Shown piece after piece: positions 12,857-62,613 of a DNA stretch of 64,000 bases (position 1 is its first letter; the number at the start of each line of letters is the position of its first letter). Under the pieces are notes generated by a model that saw nothing but the letters and a program-made list of their open reading frames with translations, made no database searches and was not told the origin of the DNA. A program made the translations under genes and the position numbers. The DNA comes from Planctomycetota bacterium (GTDB taxonomy: Bacteria; Planctomycetota; J058). Location of the stretch: NCBI GenBank assembly GCA_041402045.1, contig JAWKSZ010000043.1, positions 1-64,000 on the forward strand, in the 5' to 3' direction.

Positions 12857-15043
12857 ATGGCAACGGCCTCCAGGGGGGTGGACTTGTTCGTCGGAGGCGC
12901 CCGGGATACTCCGAAGGAGGTGAGCTGGTCGAGGTCCGAGGTCCCCAACTCCCGCTCGCAGTCCGGCGAGCTCACGCCCTCCCGCTCGGGGAGCGCGCCG
13001 GGTCGGCGTGCCCCGCGCCTGCCTCACGACCGGTTCGAGGTGCTCAACGAGCTCGGCCGCGGCGGCATGGGCGCGGTCTACCACGCCCGGGAGCGGCACA
13101 CCGGACGCGAAGTCGCGCTCAAGGTGATCCTCGACCCCGAGCGGAACCCGCGCCGCCTGGCGCGCTTCCAGCGCGAGGCGCAGCTCGCGGCGTCACTCAC
13201 GCACCCCGGAGTCGTGGCCGTGCACTCGGCGGACCTCGAGGGCTCGCCGCCCTGGATCGCCTACGAGCTGATCAAGGGCGCGCGGACCCTGGATCAGGGG
13301 ATCAAGGTCGCCCCGCCCCGGGTGCGGGTGGGCTGGATCCTGGAGGTCGCGCGGGCGGTGGGCGCCGCCCACGAGCGCGGGATCGTGCACCGCGACCTCA
13401 AGCCGCAGAACGTGCTGATCGACGGCATGGGCCGGGCCATGGTCACCGACTTCGGGCTGGCCGCCCACGAAGAGGCCGAGCGCCTGACCCGCAGCGGGGC
13501 CCTGATCGGGACCCCCCACTACATGGCCCCCGAGCAGATCGGCGCGGACCGCGCCGGCCTCGGCCCGCACACCGACGTGTGGGCGCTGGGGGTCATGCTC
13601 TACGAGGCGATCGTGGGCGAGCGCCCGTTCAACGGCCAGACCGTGCTGGCCCTCGGCGCCCAGATCACGAGCGAGCGGGTGCCGGTCCCCTCCCAGCACG
13701 CCGACGGGGTCCCCCCCTCGTGGGACCACGTGGTGCTCAAGGCCCTGAGCCGCCCCACCGGCCAGCGCTACCGCGACGCCAGCGCCTTCGCCGACGAGCT
13801 GGAGCGCGCGCTCAGCGGCGAGCGCCTGGGCGCCTCGCGCCGGCTGCTGCGGCGCGCCGCGCTCCTGGGCGGGCTCCTGGCCGCCCTCGCGCTGTGCGCC
13901 GTCGCCGTGGACTGGGTGCGCGGGCGCGTCCGCGACCCGGCCGAGCTGGCCGCGCCGCTCCTCGAGCTGGGGAGCCTGCCCGGGGAGACGCCCCGCGACG
14001 CCCTGCTCCTGCGCGGCACCGTGAGCGACGACGTCGAGGCGCTCACGGTCGAGCTCGGCGAGCGAAGCTTCACCCTCCCGGTGCGCGGGGGCCGCTTCCA
14101 GACCGAGGTCGCCCTCGAGCTCGGCGAGAACCATCTGCGTGTGAGCGTCCCCGACGGCGAGGCGCACACCGCGACGGTGATCCGCGTGCCCCCGTGGTGG
14201 CCCGGGCTCTCTCAGCGCCAGCGCCCGCGGCTCCCGCTCCCGCCCGGGCTCAGCTTCGGCGAGGTCGAGGGCGAGTACGTGAACGCCGTCGACGGCTCGC
14301 GCCTGGTGTGGATCCCGCCGGCCGAGGACGTGTCCCTGGGCGGGCGCAGCGGCGACCAGGGGGCGACCCACTTCTTCCGCGACGAGGTCCGCCGCTCGGT
14401 CCCCGGCTTCTTCCTGGGGAAGTTCGAAGTGACCTGGGCCCAGGTGGCGACCTTCTTCGAGGCGACCCAGCAGCAGGTCGACCTGACCCGTCGGCGCACC
14501 TTCCGCTCGGTGGGCACCTCGATCGACGGCTCCCAGCGCACGCTCAAGCGCGCGATGCGGGCCGGCGACGACGAGCCCGCGGTGCGCTTGCAGCTGAGCG
14601 AGGTCCAGGGCTACCTCGAGTGGGCGGGTCTGCGCCTGCCGACCGAGGACGAGTGGGAGTTCGCGGCGCGGGGCGACGAGGGCTTCTACTACCCCTACGG
14701 CGGGGAGCTCGACGAGCGCCGGGTCAACGCCAACGGGACCCTGGACCTCCCCCCGGGGGAGGAGGGCGACCGCTACCTGATCACGGCGCCGGTGGAGACC
14801 TTGAGCGTGGGTCGCTCGCCCTTCGGCTGCTACCACATGGCGGGCAACGCTCAGGAGCTGGTGATCAGCTCGTCGGCGACCGCGGAGTCGAGCAACCAGC
14901 ACACGGTGCTGCAGAACTACGTCGGCCGCGGCGGGAGCTGGGTCAGCCAGCCGCGCTACTGCAGCGGGGTCGTGCGCTTCCCCCTGACCGACGACGTCTC
15001 CACCCAGGAGCTCGGCTTCCGGGTCGCTCGCTCTGCCGATTAG
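12857..15043 (+). CDS. Ser/Thr protein kinase fused to a C-terminal FGE-sulfatase (formylglycine-generating enzyme family) domain
   Basis: Kinase motifs GRGGMGAVY, HRDLKPQN, DFG and APE. TM segment. C-terminal RLPTEDEWEFAARG...GNAQELV...GGSW, which is FGE-like. The exact start is uncertain. Confidence 0.8.
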   Translation: MATASRGVDLFVGGARDTPKEVSWSRSEVPNSRSQSGELTPSRSGSAPGRRAPRLPHDRFEVLNELGRGGMGAVYHARERHTGREVALKVILDPERNPRRLARFQREAQLAASLTHPGVVAVHSADLEGSPPWIAYELIKGARTLDQGIKVAPPRVRVGWILEVARAVGAAHERGIVHRDLKPQNVLIDGMGRAMVTDFGLAAHEEAERLTRSGALIGTPHYMAPEQIGADRAGLGPHTDVWALGVMLYEAIVGERPFNGQTVLALGAQITSERVPVPSQHADGVPPSWDHVVLKALSRPTGQRYRDASAFADELERALSGERLGASRRLLRRAALLGGLLAALALCAVAVDWVRGRVRDPAELAAPLLELGSLPGETPRDALLLRGTVSDDVEALTVELGERSFTLPVRGGRFQTEVALELGENHLRVSVPDGEAHTATVIRVPPWWPGLSQRQRPRLPLPPGLSFGEVEGEYVNAVDGSRLVWIPPAEDVSLGGRSGDQGATHFFRDEVRRSVPGFFLGKFEVTWAQVATFFEATQQQVDLTRRRTFRSVGTSIDGSQRTLKRAMRAGDDEPAVRLQLSEVQGYLEWAGLRLPTEDEWEFAARGDEGFYYPYGGELDERRVNANGTLDLPPGEEGDRYLITAPVETLSVGRSPFGCYHMAGNAQELVISSSATAESSNQHTVLQNYVGRGGSWVSQPRYCSGVVRFPLTDDVSTQELGFRVARSAD

Positions 15044-15510
15044 CGGGCGGCGGGTTCGCGGGCGCCGAAGCGTCGGGCGAGGGCCTCCGCGCGGTAGGCG
15101 AAGATCCGCTCGAGGTCGGGGCGCACGAACCAGCGTTCGATCAGCGGGCCGCCCCAGTGGGCGTAGTCCACGCGATCCAGCACGCGCGTCGTCTCCGCGT
15201 CGAGGGCCTCGAAGGTGTGGGCGTGGCGCCAGAGGGTGTAGGGGCCCTTGATCTGCTCGTCCACGAAGAACCCGGGCGGCTCCCAGGCAGAGATCCGGGT
15301 GCGCCAGCGCAGGGGCACGCCGTGGAGCTTGATCCGGTAGTCGATCAGCGCCCCCTCCTGCATGGGGATCTCGCCCTCGGTCAGGATCTGGAACTGGAGC
15401 CAGGGCGGGGTCAACGCCTCGAGGTTCCGCGCGTCCGCGAAGAACGCGAACACGTCGTCCAGGGAGCAGGGCAGGACCTGCTCTTGCTCAAGCCGTCGGG
15501 TGCGGGGCAT
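15040..15510 (-). CDS. SRPBCC (polyketide cyclase/dehydrase, RatA-like) family protein
   Basis: 156 aa, START/Bet v1-like composition. Overlaps the upstream gene by 23 nt (operon). Confidence 0.7.
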   Translation of the reverse strand: MPRTRRLEQEQVLPCSLDDVFAFFADARNLEALTPPWLQFQILTEGEIPMQEGALIDYRIKLHGVPLRWRTRISAWEPPGFFVDEQIKGPYTLWRHAHTFEALDAETTRVLDRVDYAHWGGPLIERWFVRPDLERIFAYRAEALARRFGAREPAAR

Positions 15511-16423
15511 GGGCGCCTCCTCGCGCGCGCGGGCCGAGGAGGTCGGCGAGCGCCCCCTCCAGCCGGGTGAACTCGAACTCGAAGCCCTGGTCCAGCGCCG
15601 CCTGGGGCACGACGCGCCGGCTGGTGAGCAGCTCGGCGGAGAAGCCGCCCAGGACCAGGCGCAGGGCGGTCTCCGGGACCGGGAGCCAGGCCGGGCGCCC
15701 CAGGGCGGCCGCCAAGGTCCGGGCGAACTCCGCCTGGGTCACGGGCTCGGGCGCGGTGGCGTTCAACGGACCGGCGACCTCAGGCGTCTCCAGCGCCCAC
15801 ACGATCAAGCGCACCAGGTCGTCGGCGTGGATCCAGGACCACCACTGCCGCCCGGAGCCCAGGCGCCCGCCGAGGGCCAGGCGGTAGGGAGTCAGGAGCG
15901 CTTCGAGCGCGCCCCCACGCGGATCGAGCACGAGCCCGATCCGCAGCCGGACCTCGCGCGCGGCGTGGGCTCGTGCCTCCGCCTCCCAGGCCTGACACAC
16001 CTCCGAGAGGAAACCCTCCCCCGCCGACGCGGCCTCGTCCAGGACGGTGTCTCCGCGCTCCCCGTAGTAGCCCATGGCGCTGGCGCAGATCAGGGCCGGC
16101 GGCCGCTCGAGCGCGGCGCAGGCGCTGACCAGCGCCCGTGTGCCGAGCACCCGCGAGTCGCGGATCGCCGCGCGCTTGCTCCGGGTCCAGCGACCGACGA
16201 CGGTCTCCCCGGCGAGGTGGATCAGCGCGTCCGCGCCCTCGAGGGCGGCCGTCGGCGGGGCGCTGCGCGCGTCCCAGCGCAGCGCGTCGACCTCCCGCGG
16301 GAGCTCGCTGCGCGCGCGCTCGGGGTCCCGGGTCAGCGCGCTGACCGAGTGCCCGCGAGCGCAGAGCGCGGGCAGCAGCCGCCCACCCACGAGCCCCGTG
16401 GCCCCGCTGACGACGACCTTCAC
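15488..16423 (-). CDS. TIGR01777/YfcH-family NAD-dependent epimerase/dehydratase
   Basis: N-terminus MKVVVSGATGLVGGRLL (Rossmann fold). C-terminus GFEFEF is typical of the YfcH/DUF1731 family. Confidence 0.75.
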   Translation of the reverse strand: MKVVVSGATGLVGGRLLPALCARGHSVSALTRDPERARSELPREVDALRWDARSAPPTAALEGADALIHLAGETVVGRWTRSKRAAIRDSRVLGTRALVSACAALERPPALICASAMGYYGERGDTVLDEAASAGEGFLSEVCQAWEAEARAHAAREVRLRIGLVLDPRGGALEALLTPYRLALGGRLGSGRQWWSWIHADDLVRLIVWALETPEVAGPLNATAPEPVTQAEFARTLAAALGRPAWLPVPETALRLVLGGFSAELLTSRRVVPQAALDQGFEFEFTRLEGALADLLGPRARGGAHAPHPTA

Positions 16424-16977
16424 GCCTGCTCCCTGGCGACGCCCAGCTCGCGCGCGGCCGCGAGCAGCTCCGCCACCGAGGGGTGATCCCCCGAGCGCTG
16501 GCTCACGTAGTGGTAGCGCAGGACGCCGTCCTGGATCACGACCACCCCGCCGTTCTGCCAGGGGTCGCCCTGGGTGCGGCCCTGACGGAACCCGTCGCGC
16601 CAGGCGCCGATCGCCGAGCCGACGGAGCCGGGTCCCAGCACGCGCAGGATCCCGCGCTTGAAGCCCAGGGCCTGGTAGAGCTCGAGCCCCGGATCGACCA
16701 GGAGCCGCACGTCCGCGGGCAACTCGGCCTCGTCACGAAAGGCCTGCGCCATGGTGGGGGTGCCGCTGCCGACGAACGCCAACCGCACGCCGGCGTCGCG
16801 CAAGGTGGAGTGGTGGGCGCAGACCTGCGCCACCTGTTGGCGGCAGAACAGTCACCCGAAGTGCCGGAGGAAGACCACCAGCGCGGGGGCCTCTGCCCAC
16901 AGCTCCCGGAAGAGCACCTGGGCGCCGTCGTCGGCGGTGAGGACGCGCGCGGCTGCGTCCGCGGGAACAGGGGTCAT
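16420..16977 (-). CDS. candidate selenoprotein: AhpC/TSA (peroxiredoxin-like 2) thiol-disulfide oxidoreductase with an in-frame UGA in the motif FLRHFG-U-LFC (U-x-x-C)
   Basis: ORFs 16852..17064 and 16420..16833 are in the same frame, separated only by TGA at 16852..16854. An fdhF-like SECIS hairpin (GGUC loop) sits 18 nt downstream. Confidence 0.6.
16813..16833 (-). other. bacterial SECIS-like hairpin (GUGGCGCA-GGUC-UGCGCC(C)AC) downstream of the UGA
   Basis: The apical part matches E. coli fdhF SECIS (GCA-GGUC-UGC with a bulge). The loop is 26 nt after the UGA. Confidence 0.5.
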
Positions 16978-17134
16978 GGCGCCTCGCATTCGTCTACAGT
17001 TTGTCCAGATTCTGAAGACATGCAAGCGCCCGGGTGTTTCCTTCCGCAGAGAAAGTTCCCACATGTCCGCAGAGCAGACTACGCTAAGCGGAAGGAGCAG
17101 GAACCTGGACGTGGGCGAGCGCGGAATCTACAAA

Positions 17135-18043
17135 ATGCGCACAATCTCTGAGAGGACGGGAATCTCGCCCTCTCTGCTCCGCGCCTGGGAGCGTCGTCAC
17201 GGGTTGCTCGAGCCCGAGCGCACCGACGGCGGCCACCGCCTCTACACCGAGACCGACCTCCAGGTCCTGCAGCGGATCCGCCAACTCCTGGACCAGGGCC
17301 GCTCGATCGGAGAGCTGGCGAGCCTCGGTCGCAAGGCGCTCCTGAGCCCCAGCCTGCCGCCGCTGGCGGCGCCCAAGGCCCCGCCGCCGCGCCCCCAGCC
17401 GACCGTCGTGGAGCCAGGCCTCTCAGGCCTGCGCGACCGGATCGTCGACGCGGCGGTCGACCTCGAGGAGGCGGAGCTGCAGCGCGCGCTCGACGCCTGC
17501 TTCGCGCAGGTCGCGCCGACGACGGCCCTGGACTACGTGGTGTTCCCTGCCCTGCACGAGGTCGGCGAGCGCTGGGCGCGCGGCGAGTGCAGCGTGGCCG
17601 GCGAACACCTGATCAGCGCCAAGGTCGTGGGTCGCCTGATCAAGCTCCTGGAGGTCGCGAATCCGTCCGCGGGGCCCGACGTGCCCCGCGCGATCTGCGC
17701 CTGCCTCCCCGACGAACAGCACGTGATCGGCGCCCTGGCGGTGGCCTACCACCTGGCGCGCAGGGGCTACCACGTGCACTACCTGGGCGCGGCGATGCCG
17801 CTCCCCGACCTCGAGCGGAGCTGTCAGGTCCTGCGCCCGCGGGTCGTGGCCTTGAGCGTGGTGCGGGCGCCCCTGCTCGGGACCCACCAACCAGGCCTGA
17901 TCGCCTTCGCTGAGCGCGTGATCCCCAACGGGACGCGGGTGCTGGTGGGTGGCCCGGGGGTTCGCGGCGCAGACCCAGCGCTCCCCGCCTCCGGAATCGA
18001 GCTGCTCCAGCCCGAGGCGGACCTGACCAAGGCCTTGGCCTAG
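17135..18043 (+). CDS. MerR-family regulator with C-terminal cobalamin-binding domain (CarH/LitR-like light-responsive repressor)
   Basis: N-terminal MerR HTH (MRTISERTGISPSLLRAWERRHGLL). C-terminal B12-binding region with DEQHVIG and a Rossmann-like GxxxG. AT-richer divergent promoter region upstream. Confidence 0.7.
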   Translation: MRTISERTGISPSLLRAWERRHGLLEPERTDGGHRLYTETDLQVLQRIRQLLDQGRSIGELASLGRKALLSPSLPPLAAPKAPPPRPQPTVVEPGLSGLRDRIVDAAVDLEEAELQRALDACFAQVAPTTALDYVVFPALHEVGERWARGECSVAGEHLISAKVVGRLIKLLEVANPSAGPDVPRAICACLPDEQHVIGALAVAYHLARRGYHVHYLGAAMPLPDLERSCQVLRPRVVALSVVRAPLLGTHQPGLIAFAERVIPNGTRVLVGGPGVRGADPALPASGIELLQPEADLTKALA

Positions 18044-18232
18044 TTCCGTCCCCGCGGCGGGGCGAAATCGCCCGCACAGCTGCAAAAGAACTTACGCATT
18101 TCTTTCAACGCCACGAGGCAGGCGGCCCGGCGTCGCATCGGACAAAACTGTCCCATATCTAGACAAATTTGGCACAGGGTTGTCGGCCGTTCAGATTGCG
18201 TACAGAATGCCGGCGTCAGAAGGAGAGCCCCC

Positions 18233-18697
18233 GTGGTCAACACCCCCCAACTGTTCAAAGACGTCCGTGTCCCCCATATCTCCGAGCGTCGTCCTGCCCC
18301 CCGCTGCGAGGCAGAGGGCTGCCAGGAGACCACCCGCAACGGCAAGCCGTTCTGCACCAACCACGTGGAGCACCTGCCCTACGTGGCCGACCTGATCGAC
18401 ACCCTCGACGCCCGCGACGCCGAGCTCGCGCGGGTGCAGCGCCGTGGCGCGCGCTGCGTCGACCCCACCGGGATCACGGCCCAGGAGATCCTGCTCCAGC
18501 TCAAGCTCTACGGCGGTCGAACCATCGCTCGGCTCTCCCGGGACCTCATGCTCGAGGAGGACGTGGTGGAGTCCTACGGACGCGCCCTGGCCAAGCTCGG
18601 CGCGGTCTCGATCGGCCGTCACCGCCGTGGCCTGCTGCTGCACCCCGAGGACCTCGGCTGCGTGCTGCGCCGTCCCTCCGCCGAGACGGCGGCCTGA
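18233..18697 (+). CDS. hypothetical protein
   Basis: GTG start preceded by GAAGGAGAG RBS. Natural composition, 154 aa. Confidence 0.55.
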   Translation: MVNTPQLFKDVRVPHISERRPAPRCEAEGCQETTRNGKPFCTNHVEHLPYVADLIDTLDARDAELARVQRRGARCVDPTGITAQEILLQLKLYGGRTIARLSRDLMLEEDVVESYGRALAKLGAVSIGRHRRGLLLHPEDLGCVLRRPSAETAA

Positions 18698-18700
18698 TCG

Positions 18701-19615
18701 GTGCCCGCGGCGGGCGCGGTCCTGGTCACTGGCGCGACGGGGTTCGTCGGGCACCGGCTGGTGCCTGCGCTGCTCGCGCGCGGGCACGAGGTCGTGTGCA
18801 CCAGCCGCAACCCTCGCGCGGCGCGCCTGCGCTGGCCAGGCCTGCGCTGGGTCCCGCTCGACGTGCACGACCCGGAGACCCTGGACGTGCTCGCGGGCTG
18901 CCGCGCCGCCTACTACCTGGTGCACTCGATCGGCGAGTCGAGCGACTACGCCGAGCGTGAGCGCCGGGCGGCGGCGCGCTTCGGCGAGGCGGCGGCCCGC
19001 CACGGGCTCGAGCGCCTCGTCTACCTGGGCGGCGTGCGCCCGCCGACCGGCTGTTCCCCGCACCTCCGCGCGCGGCTCGAGGTCGGCCGCGCCCTGCGCG
19101 CGGGCGGCGTGAGCGTCGTCGAGCTGCGCGCCGGCATGCTGATCGGCGCCGGCAGCGCGAGCTGGCAGATCGTGAGCGAGCTCGCTGCGCGCCTGCCGGC
19201 CATGCTCCTCCCGCGCTGGCTCGAGCGGCACTCGTGGCCGGTCGGGATCGAGGACACGGTCCACGCGCTGGTGGCGAGCCTCGAGCTCCCCGAGCGCGAC
19301 GCCGAGAGCTACGCGATCCCGGGGCCTGAGCGGATCTGCCACCGCGAGCTCCTGGCGCGCACCGCCGACGCCCAGGACCGGCACCCGTGGATGCTCGGCG
19401 TCCCGTTCGTGACCCCCACGCTCTCGAGCTACTGGATCGCCGCGGTGACGGGCGTGCCTCTGGGCCTGGTGCAGGAGCTCGTCGCCGGGTTGCTCTACGA
19501 GCTCGACCCGTCGACGCCTGCGCTGTGGCCGCTGATCGGCCACACGCCGCAGCCCTTGGATCAGGCGATCGCCGCCGCGCTGGCCGAGCAGGCCGCGCAG
19601 CGCGACGCCGGCTGA
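18701..19615 (+). CDS. NAD(P)-binding atypical SDR / NmrA-like oxidoreductase
   Basis: VTGATGFVGHRLV Rossmann motif. Starts 4 nt after the upstream stop (operon). Confidence 0.7.
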   Translation: MPAAGAVLVTGATGFVGHRLVPALLARGHEVVCTSRNPRAARLRWPGLRWVPLDVHDPETLDVLAGCRAAYYLVHSIGESSDYAERERRAAARFGEAAARHGLERLVYLGGVRPPTGCSPHLRARLEVGRALRAGGVSVVELRAGMLIGAGSASWQIVSELAARLPAMLLPRWLERHSWPVGIEDTVHALVASLELPERDAESYAIPGPERICHRELLARTADAQDRHPWMLGVPFVTPTLSSYWIAAVTGVPLGLVQELVAGLLYELDPSTPALWPLIGHTPQPLDQAIAAALAEQAAQRDAG

Positions 19616-61957: not shown

Positions 61958-62074
61958 CAAGCGAAGCCTCTACTAGAAACCAGAGTCACGATCCTGAGCG
62001 GGCGAGCGAGCGCCAGATCGCTGACGACATGGGAGCCACTCTCGCCCGCTCAGAATCGTGAACTCTGGTTTAGC
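61958..62074. repeat. structured hairpin repeat, copy 2 (arms ccagagtcacgatcctgagcgggcgag / ctcgcccgctcagaatcgtgaactctgg)
   Basis: Same element as 55308..55425. Base changes between copies preserve pairing (ccgg/ccgg versus ccag/ctgg). Sits between convergent gene ends. Confidence 0.6.
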
Positions 62075-62079
62075 AGCTG

Positions 62080-62613
62080 TTAGACGAGCGCCGAGAGCGT
62101 GGTCAAGGACTCGAAGCGGTAGCCCGCCTCCTCGATCCGCTCGCGGCCGCCGGCCTCGCGATCGACCATGCACCACACCCCGAGCACCGTCGCCTGCTCG
62201 GCGACGCGCTCGGCGGCCTTGAGCACCGAGCCGCCGGAGGTGACCACGTCCTCGACCAGGACCACGCGGTCGTCGGCGCCGAGGCTCGCGCCCTCGATCG
62301 CCTTGCCCAGCCCGTGCCCCTTGGGGGTCGGGCGCACGTAGACGAGCTTGAGGGGCACGCCGTCCTGGGCGGCGAGCACCCCGGTGGCGGACACCAGCGG
62401 GCAGGCGCCGGTGACCGGCCCCGCGAGGCAGGTCGCGCCCCAGCGCTGGGCCATGGCCAGGATCTCGCGCCCGAGGAGCAAGGACCCCAGCGGGTCCAGG
62501 CTCACCTTGCGCCCGTCGACGTAGACGGTGCTGGTGCCGCCGGAGGCGAGCTGGATCGGGGGGCCGTGCGCCACGCTCCGGCGCAAGTGCTGAAGGAGTT
62601 CGCTGTCGCTCAT
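62080..62613 (-). CDS. pyrE: orotate phosphoribosyltransferase
   Basis: PRTase motif VVLVEDVVTSGGS. 177 aa, the short OPRTase type. Confidence 0.85.
   Translation of the reverse strand: MSDSELLQHLRRSVAHGPPIQLASGGTSTVYVDGRKVSLDPLGSLLLGREILAMAQRWGATCLAGPVTGACPLVSATGVLAAQDGVPLKLVYVRPTPKGHGLGKAIEGASLGADDRVVLVEDVVTSGGSVLKAAERVAEQATVLGVWCMVDREAGGRERIEEAGYRFESLTTLSALV

Follow-up and report, generated by a model that had tools for sequence, protein, structure and literature searches.

The 64,000-nt stretch of Planctomycetota bacterium DNA analyzed here (GenBank assembly GCA_041402045.1, contig JAWKSZ010000043.1, positions 1 to 64,000; hereafter the window) carries a carH-like regulator gene (17111..18043, + strand) that is divergent from selL (16420..16977, − strand), the gene for a SelL-related, peroxiredoxin-like (Prx-like) selenoprotein. 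The explanation that fits this arrangement best, and that we regard as likely, is that the regulator is a class I LitR/CarH-type photoreceptor-repressor with operators at the selL operon and at a second, downstream operon headed by a gene that we call orf152, and that light would derepress both. Light probably switches on the selenoprotein operon, and the selenoprotein itself, by its sequence context, is one gene of a larger predicted regulon that also takes in a TIGR01777-family oxidoreductase, an SRPBCC protein, the orf152 product and an SDR.

The carH-like gene encodes a MerR-type DNA-binding domain, a four-helix bundle and a Rossmann B12-binding domain, and a Pro/Ala-rich linker joins the DNA-binding module to the B12 module. 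The original prediction, which placed this gene at 17135..18043 (+), had described a MerR protein with a cobalamin-binding domain; the open reading frame is real, and the architecture is borne out by Pfam matches to MerR_1 (residues 2–61, E = 1e-16), B12-binding_2 (residues 99–162, E = 1.4e-11) and B12-binding (residues 185–279, E = 7e-10). Its best solved relative is the Thermus CarH, TtCarH (Protein Data Bank, PDB, 5c8d; E = 1.4e-32 over residues 4–266). CarH proteins are recognized by an RxWERRY recognition helix, a four-helix bundle with a W-x9-EH motif and the B12 motif D/E-x-H-x2-G/P-x41-S-x-T/V-x22-27-GG (PMC9304148). The W-x9-EH motif caps the adenosyl group and separates CarH from its B12-independent paralogue CarA, in which it is lost (PMC9304148). 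The recognition-helix motif of the regulator is RAWERRH (residues 24–30 of the 310-residue form), with His in place of Tyr, and the pattern R.WE.[RH][YHF] is present in all 39 homologues that we aligned (40–100% identity to the window protein). Its W-x9-EH motif, WARGECSVAGEH, aligns to TtCarH W131, E141 and H142 and was found by pattern search in 39 of 39 homologues, and its B12 motif takes the form EQHVIG-x41-SVV-x28-GG, the final spacer being one residue beyond the published range. The lower axial ligand His of EQHVIG aligns to TtCarH H177. The B12-binding His and Trp, on which the original prediction had staked its assignment, are both in place, and the equivalents of W131, E141, H142 and H177 are invariant across the alignment. 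By these defining sequence features the regulator is a member of the class I LitR/CarH family, but not an equivalog of the characterized proteins.

Translation of the regulator probably begins at GTG 17111, which would give a protein of 310 residues, and not at ATG 17135 (302 residues). The eight codons before the ATG (GERGIYKM, in frame) match homologue N termini (...GxYKM), the orthologous DNA retains the GERGIYKM frame with synonymous or conservative codon differences, as read from an alignment of the gap, and a Shine-Dalgarno sequence, GGAAGGAG, lies ~11 nt 5′ of the GTG. With the GTG start the selL–carH gap would measure 133 bp and not the 157 bp first given for it; the divergent orientation and the AT-rich character claimed with it hold, the GC content of the gap being 56–59% compared with 72% for the whole window.

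CarH operators consist of three to four tandem 11-bp nnnnTnnACAn repeats that overlap the −35 or −10 element, and CarH also binds sites in which only one or two of the repeats are perfect and pseudo-repeats make up the rest (PMC9304148). We scored every window position on both strands (128,000 positions) as three tandem repeats by the T5, A8, C9 and A10 positions, for a maximum of 12. Only four sites in the entire 64 kb score at least 9/12, and three of the four flank carH: 16989..17021 (+, 10/12) and 16990..17022 (−, 10/12) in the selL–carH gap and 18145..18177 (+, 9/12) in the carH–orf152 gap. The check for CarH-type direct repeats between the divergent genes that had been proposed earlier is thus positive, with the two best sites of three 11-bp TnnACA repeats in the window lying in exactly this gap. 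The fourth site (62055..62087, +, 9/12) falls at the 3′ end of an unrelated gene, over the stop codon of a 177-residue phosphoribosyltransferase-like protein (62080..62613, −), and contains no perfect repeat; we judged it to be a chance match.

The two overlapping sites in the selL–carH gap define the putative operator O1 (16989..17022, both strands), which reads CATGTCTTCAG AATCTGGACAA ACTGTAGACGA on the − strand and TTCGTCTACAG TTTGTCCAGAT TCTGAAGACAT on the + strand. The O1 score was reached by 6 of 2,000 dinucleotide shuffles of the local gap, and two tandem copies of nAnnTnnACAn with at most one mismatch match the window solely at 17002..17021 (0.07 matches expected). The central repeat, AATCTGGACAA (17001..17011, −), is perfect; it fills the spacer and overlaps the −10 element of a putative selL-operon promoter, and its TGTnnA core is invariant in the window and in three orthologous loci (L001, L003 and L004), while the flanks diverge. 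The pseudo-repeats on either side cover the −35 element and the likely start site of the same promoter. The second putative operator, O2 (18145..18177, +), reads AAACTGTCCCA TATCTAGACAA ATTTGGCACAG and lies just 5′ of the −35 element of the predicted orf152 promoter, where its perfect repeat, TATCTAGACAA, occupies 18156..18166 and is accompanied by a GnnACA pseudo-repeat. Its score was reached by 49 of 2,000 shuffles of its gap. The sequence ATCTRGACAAA occurs in the window only in the gaps that hold O1 and O2 (0.12 occurrences expected), and ATCTnnACAAA is retained at O2 in L003 and L004. Generic repeat finding in the intergenic region gave short, uninformative repeats only. A perfect repeat followed by a pseudo-repeat (GGAATCTACAA AATGCGCACAA) is also present within the first carH codons (17123..17144, +), and likewise in L001–L003; as an operator it was set aside, since the conserved GIYKMRT codons probably account for it.

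The promoter to which O1 would belong, 16998..17025 (−), combines a −35 element TTGCAT (17025..17020), a 16-nt spacer and a −10 element CAAACT (17003..16998), so that O1 is predicted to overlap both elements. The element TTGCnn-16-CAnnnT, reading toward selL, is conserved across the window and the three orthologues (TTGCGn-16-CArrAT in L001, L003 and L004, by our reading of the alignment), and between it and selL lie a short leader and a ribosome-binding site of the GAGG type. For the orf152–SDR operon, the putative promoter (18180..18208, +) has a −35 element TTGTCG, a 17-nt spacer and a −10 element CAGAAT; in L001, L003 and L004, TTGnnn-17-TAGAyT is conserved at this place 5′ of orf152, again as read from the alignment.

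The same type of site marks the relatives of the regulator. In 84 loci that encode regulator homologues we found 409 sites with scores of at least 9; 283 of them, spread over 70 of the loci, fall in the 350 bp preceding the regulator gene, and many are perfect 12/12 triplets. Such a concentration of sites before the gene indicates that this regulator subfamily uses CarH-type operators. In L020–L084, which are mostly metagenome-assembled genomes of Gaiellales, Solirubrobacterales and other Actinomycetota, carH homologues have perfect three-repeat operators that include TTGACA, many have a second operator ~95–115 bp upstream, and the commonest upstream neighbors are genes for Fasciclin-domain (23 loci) and DUF378 (11 loci) proteins.

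The divergent gene selL contains an in-frame TGA (16852..16854) inside FLRHFG-U-LFCRQ, which gives a U-x-x-C motif if read as selenocysteine (Sec). With U replaced by C, the protein matches Pfam AhpC-TSA_2 (PF13911; E = 7.6e-17, 62.2 bits, cutoff 27), and its only NCBIfam match is NF040769, "SelL-related redox protein" (114.7 bits, cutoff 120). The TGA replaces the first Cys of the CxxC family motif, so that HFG-U-LFC aligns to HFGCLFC of the Cys homologues. Both the TGA and the frame downstream are kept in L001, L003 and L004, and at least 120 stretches of metagenome DNA match a degenerate pattern for H-[F/Y]-G-TGA-x-F-C-R, ~115 of which align to SelL, most of them across the TGA. Prx-like UxxC selenoproteins are well documented (PMC2398784), and Cys and Sec forms of the SelL/Prx-like2 family both occur in nature. 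A bulged hairpin resembling a selenocysteine insertion sequence (SECIS), at 16812..16834 (−), is predicted to start 18 nt past the UGA with a GGUC apical loop (16822..16825), and such a hairpin is predicted in the three orthologues as well. RNAalifold found no consensus structure in 121 fixed-register sequences 3′ of the UGA, but explicit pair counting did reveal the hairpin: nt 23–28 pair with nt 33–38 past the UGA in 83–92% of 121 distinct homologous sequences, the apical loop is AGUU in 90 of the 121, and some pairs differ in both partners (as in CG/GC and CG/UA). At gathering thresholds Rfam gave no family in the window, and no tRNA, tRNA-Sec or sel genes were seen within it.

Downstream of selL lie a TIGR01777-family (YfcH/ThyD-like, DUF1731) NAD-dependent oxidoreductase gene (15488..16423, −; TIGR01777 317.6 bits, cutoff 207; Pfam Epimerase and DUF1731) and, as the last gene of the operon, a gene for an SRPBCC (polyketide cyclase/START-like) protein (15040..15510, −; Pfam Polyketide_cyc, E = 8e-8). 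The GTG start of the TIGR01777 gene overlaps the selL stop codon TGA (16422..16420) in a GTGA, the SRPBCC gene overlaps the TIGR01777 gene by 23 nt, and by these junctions selL appears translationally coupled to both partners. On the other side of carH, the product of orf152 (18233..18697, +) has a CxxxxC...CxxH motif in its N-terminal part and is predicted to form a winged helix in its C-terminal part. It has no Pfam or NCBIfam match, and its family counts 840 representatives at E ≤ 1e-3 (50% clustering). The AlphaFold2 model (mean predicted local distance difference test score, pLDDT, 70.6) shows helix-helix-helix followed by a β-hairpin over residues 83–138, with weak, MarR-type fold matches (E ~1e-3, TM score 0.37–0.40). 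We regard orf152 as a candidate second-tier regulator. Three nucleotides after orf152 begins the gene for an NAD(P)-binding SDR/NmrA-like oxidoreductase (18701..19615, +; Pfam Epimerase and NAD_binding_10). The neighbors of the module, as annotated in the syntenic L001, are a Ser/Thr kinase-FGE-sulfatase gene at one end and rpsD with a DNA ligase gene at the other. The first of these (12857..15043, +), for a Ser/Thr protein kinase that has an FGE-sulfatase domain at its C terminus, is convergent with the SRPBCC gene, which it overlaps by 4 nt, and this arrangement is syntenic in L001–L004.

The proposed mechanism follows characterized CarH, by analogy with which we infer adenosylcobalamin (AdoCbl) binding, light response and repression for the regulator, as well as the promoter positions and the roles of the products. 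In the dark, the regulator would bind AdoCbl and oligomerize, and the oligomer would then occupy the tandem 11-bp TnnACA repeats. At O1, which covers the promoter of the divergent selL(Sec)–TIGR01777–SRPBCC operon, bound CarH would occlude RNA polymerase at PselL; at O2, which abuts the −35 element of the orf152–SDR operon, it would reach the −35 element of Porf152. Near-ultraviolet, blue or green light would photolyze the Co–C bond and dissociate the oligomer, and both operons would be derepressed. The output would be a photo-oxidative-stress response and not carotenogenesis, made up of a Sec U-x-x-C thiol oxidoreductase, two NAD(P)-dependent oxidoreductases, an SRPBCC ligand-binding protein and a winged-helix protein that possibly relays the signal.

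Parts of this module recur elsewhere. The order SRPBCC, TIGR01777 and selL(Sec), divergent from carH, orf152 and SDR, is preserved in L001–L004, where CarH is ~70% identical. Among 80 more distant regulator loci (33–52% identity, several phyla), SDR homologues (36–41% identity) lie within ~3 kb of carH-like genes in ~30, and Epimerase/NmrA is the commonest family among downstream neighbors. SRPBCC and/or TIGR01777 genes recur near distant regulators in about a dozen loci: TIGR01777 adjoins carH homologues in L007, L037 and L064 and is farther from carH in L045, and SRPBCC genes are beside or near carH homologues in L007, L008, L022, L037, L042, L043, L064, L082 and L084. Other recurrent neighbors of distant regulators are Fasciclin (23), DUF378 (11), CMAS, photolyase, DUF1295, ECF sigma factors and folE2, and carotenoid genes are seldom adjacent in this regulator subfamily. 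The orf152 family was found in only 7 related loci of ~210 fetched, always beside carH or a CarH-type operator (homologues include L090:10833-11480 and L007:3706-4140); with 7 of ~210 loci, we rejected it as a general CarH partner. Regulators at 50–55% identity adjoin DCC1-like thiol-disulfide oxidoreductases, DUF1295/DUF2177, SDR-acyltransferase pairs or carotenoid-desaturase-like genes. In L088–L091, a DCC1-like thiol-disulfide oxidoreductase (PF04134) is an immediate or close carH neighbor in four of four loci, where it co-occurs with DUF1295/DUF2177, SDR-acyltransferase pairs or two amine-oxidase (carotenoid-desaturase-like) genes, and operator-like repeats are present in the promoter gaps of L089, L090 and L091.

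The CarH/Sec-SelL pairing is also found outside the syntenic loci. In L090, where CarH is 51% identical, a Sec-SelL gene lies 3.7 kb from carH and is divergent from an orf152 homologue; two perfect tandem repeats, AATATGGACAA ACACTGTACAG, stand between these two genes, and AATCTCGACAA, near-identical to the O1 central repeat, lies 5′ of the Sec-SelL gene. In L112 and L211, selL follows carH in tandem, and in L132 the two are divergent; L188, with partial SelL and CarH matches and an SRPBCC gene nearby, is a weaker case. In L092 and L111, repeats precede a MerR-SelL fusion, which is followed by a Sec-SelL gene and, further on, by an SRPBCC gene. The fusion is a single open reading frame (L092:1032-1910, +; L111:3442-4359, −) that joins a CarH-type MerR domain (RAWERRY) to a SelL-like Prx-like2 domain with HFGCIFCRE (CxxC) and contains no B12 module; in L092 the repeats before it read AGCTTGTACAA ATACGTGACAA, and a full CarH with intact motifs is encoded immediately upstream. 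The fusion may represent an undescribed, redox-sensing LitR class. As judged by gene order, the CarH/Sec-SelL link is uncommon but not accidental, because the pairing recurs in several arrangements.

Several observations weigh against light-controlled repression of the selL operon by a CarH of the known kind. Although NCBIfam CarH (NF052513) is the best family match of the regulator, its 144.7 bits fall short of the 400 set as the cutoff for an equivalog. Where TtCarH has H132, which is the upper ligand in the light state, the window protein has Ala (WA and not WH), and none of the 39 homologues has a His after the Trp of W-x9-EH. The TtCarH R176–D201 salt bridge at the dimer interface aligns to Gln and Ala (3whp/5c8d alignment). 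Because of this replacement, the oligomer state and the photoproduct of the regulator may differ from those of TtCarH. The His after the Trp and the Arg–Asp salt bridge are present in many CarH homologues, but not in all, and are not strictly defining. The subfamily-wide absence of the His, together with the Gln/Ala pair of the window protein, hints at an altered light-state ligation or oligomer interface. On the DNA side, only the central repeat of O1 is well kept in L001, L003 and L004, where triplet scores in the selL–carH gap stay below 8/12. A strict σ70 and terminator scan of 16800..17300 gave no match, and because of this the promoter positions and the operator–promoter overlap rest on our reading of the alignment. 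Finally, repeats occur upstream of 7 of 105 Sec-SelL genes compared with 10 of 402 control windows, which is no enrichment, and we therefore rejected the idea that SelL genes are generally CarH-regulated.

O1 could also serve carH autoregulation instead of the selL operon. Here the regulator would be a genuine CarH photoreceptor, but 16989..17022 would act only in (auto)regulation, possibly together with control of orf152–SDR, and the selenoprotein operon would be independent, its position a matter of lineage-specific synteny. In actinobacterial homologues the best operator is 26–76 bp upstream of the regulator start, a position that we read as covering the regulator's own promoter. None of the 80 distant regulator loci has a SelL neighbor, and the three SelL homologue contexts L085–L087 contain Sec-SelL genes with neither CarH nor repeats nearby. 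In contrast, the perfect repeat of O1 lies within the conserved TTGCnn-16-CAnnnT that reads toward selL, 24–34 nt before the selL start and ~100 nt from the carH start. Moreover, the near-identical AATCTCGACAA stands before the Sec-SelL gene of L090 even though carH is 3.7 kb away, and CarH is found beside Sec-SelL in at least four other arrangements. We consider autoregulation alone improbable, and prefer the reading in which O1 controls the selL operon.

The recurrence of the pairing, in at least five gene arrangements, and the MerR-SelL fusion behind CarH-type repeats in L092 and L111 suggest a further reading, in which CarH and SelL-type thiol/selenol oxidoreductases would form a recurrent functional pair, beyond the addition of one more target gene. 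We hold this wider proposal to be unlikely. The SelL-like domain may be the module that senses redox state (peroxide or singlet oxygen) in a LitR class not yet described, with operators in common with the B12 photoreceptor; alternatively, the free Sec-SelL may use a substrate that light generates and that is connected with CarH chemistry, such as photolyzed or oxidized cobalamin or a lipid-derived product. If the functional pair is real, the orf152 winged-helix protein would be a second-tier regulator of the response.

That the regulator senses something other than light, either binding cobalamin as a sensor of B12 availability or redox state or acting as a B12-independent, CarA-like repressor relieved by another factor, seems to us very unlikely. 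The nonconserved equivalents of H132 and R176–D201, the NCBIfam CarH score below its cutoff and the fusion of a related MerR domain to a redox (SelL-like) domain in L092 and L111 would be in keeping with it; the W-x9-EH motif, a feature lost in CarA (PMC9304148), is however intact and invariant across the subfamily, and light-damage genes of typical kinds (photolyase, CMAS of the cyclopropane/furan fatty-acid synthase type, DUF1295 and folE2) neighbor regulators across the subfamily. Least credible of all, to the point that we give it almost no weight, is that TGA 16852 is a true stop and the selenoprotein a split or decaying gene, the pairing being an annotation illusion: gene callers do split selL into pieces of 40 and 119–137 residues in every database record, and tRNA-Sec and sel genes are not visible in the window, but the TGA takes precisely the place of the first Cys in the CxxC motif, the protein remains conserved beyond it in orthologues and over 100 metagenome loci, a hairpin with G-U in its loop and some compensatory changes comes next at a constant distance, and NCBIfam names the family SelL-related, in line with the documented Prx-like UxxC selenoproteins (PMC2398784).

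If the preferred reading of light-controlled selL and orf152 operons is confirmed, B12-based light sensing would reach the Planctomycetota and a selenoprotein, and selenium use would be linked to light exposure and cobalamin supply within one cell. It would also place the SelL-related Prx-like2, TIGR01777/DUF1731, SRPBCC partner, NmrA-like SDR and orf152 families in a physiological context, namely light-induced oxidative stress. CarH is used in optogenetics, and a clade that naturally has neither the H132 bis-His ligand nor the R176–D201 salt bridge could differ in photochemistry or oligomerization. The more novel leads are the recurrent CarH–SelL association, the MerR-SelL fusion and the orf152 winged-helix family.

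Comparison with TtCarH/LitR (PDB 5c8d, 5c8a and 3whp), to which the regulator aligns along its full length, shows that the two proteins share the three-module architecture and the W131, E141, H142 and H177 equivalents. The TtCarH gene is divergent from its target operon, with an operator of three tandem 11-bp TnnACA repeats that overlaps promoter elements, and the same arrangement is seen here with a putative operator. However, the window protein has Ala in place of H132, Gln and Ala in place of R176 and D201, and a longer linker; the window operators contain one perfect repeat each, flanked by pseudo-repeats; and the adjacent target is a selenoprotein-oxidoreductase operon plus orf152–SDR and not crtB. 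Like the window protein, the myxobacterial CarH proteins (from M. xanthus, Cystobacter, Sorangium and Haliangium; PMC9304148) combine the classic B12 motif with W-x9-EH and an RxWERRY-type helix. Experiments in that group show recognition of operators in which pseudo-repeats accompany just one or two perfect repeats, and some operators are expected to serve two divergent promoters (PMC9304148). Myxobacterial CarH controls carotenoid clusters. The CarA/CarS/CarQRS circuitry is not present here.

The class II LitR proteins of Pseudomonas (PplR1-3 and PmlR; PMC9758184) are LitR/CarH-family MerR regulators with a non-carotenoid light-inducible set, as proposed for the window. Their targets include photolyase, SDR, FAD oxidoreductase, furan fatty-acid synthase and folate genes and unannotated proteins (PMC9758184). 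They differ in that they have no Rossmann B12 domain, PmlR2 being the effector of a LOV photoreceptor (PMC9758184), while the window protein is class I with a full B12 module; their reported targets include neither a selenoprotein nor a Prx-like protein (PMC9758184). The original prediction had called the pairing of CarH with a selenoprotein unusual on the grounds that CarH targets are carotenoid genes. This holds in part: the target class is new, but LitR/CarH proteins already control photolyase, fatty-acid-modifying and folate genes (PMC9758184). In our literature search no selenoprotein or Prx-like protein came up as a CarH target, and queries combining CarH with peroxiredoxin, or DUF1731 with light, returned nothing relevant. 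Like the described SelL/Prx-like UxxC selenoproteins (PMC2398784; NF040769), window selL encodes a thioredoxin-fold Prx-like2 protein with U-x-x-C in place of CxxC; what sets it apart is that it heads an operon behind a CarH-type operator, a link of the family to a light-responsive regulator that we did not find in the literature. LitR/CarH control of non-carotenoid photoprotection genes is thus known, and a selenoprotein is an unreported class of target. On sequence grounds, the regulator most likely works by the known AdoCbl- and light-dependent repression, as in the characterized CarH proteins, with a local regulon that would be a non-carotenoid oxidative-stress set headed by a selenoprotein.

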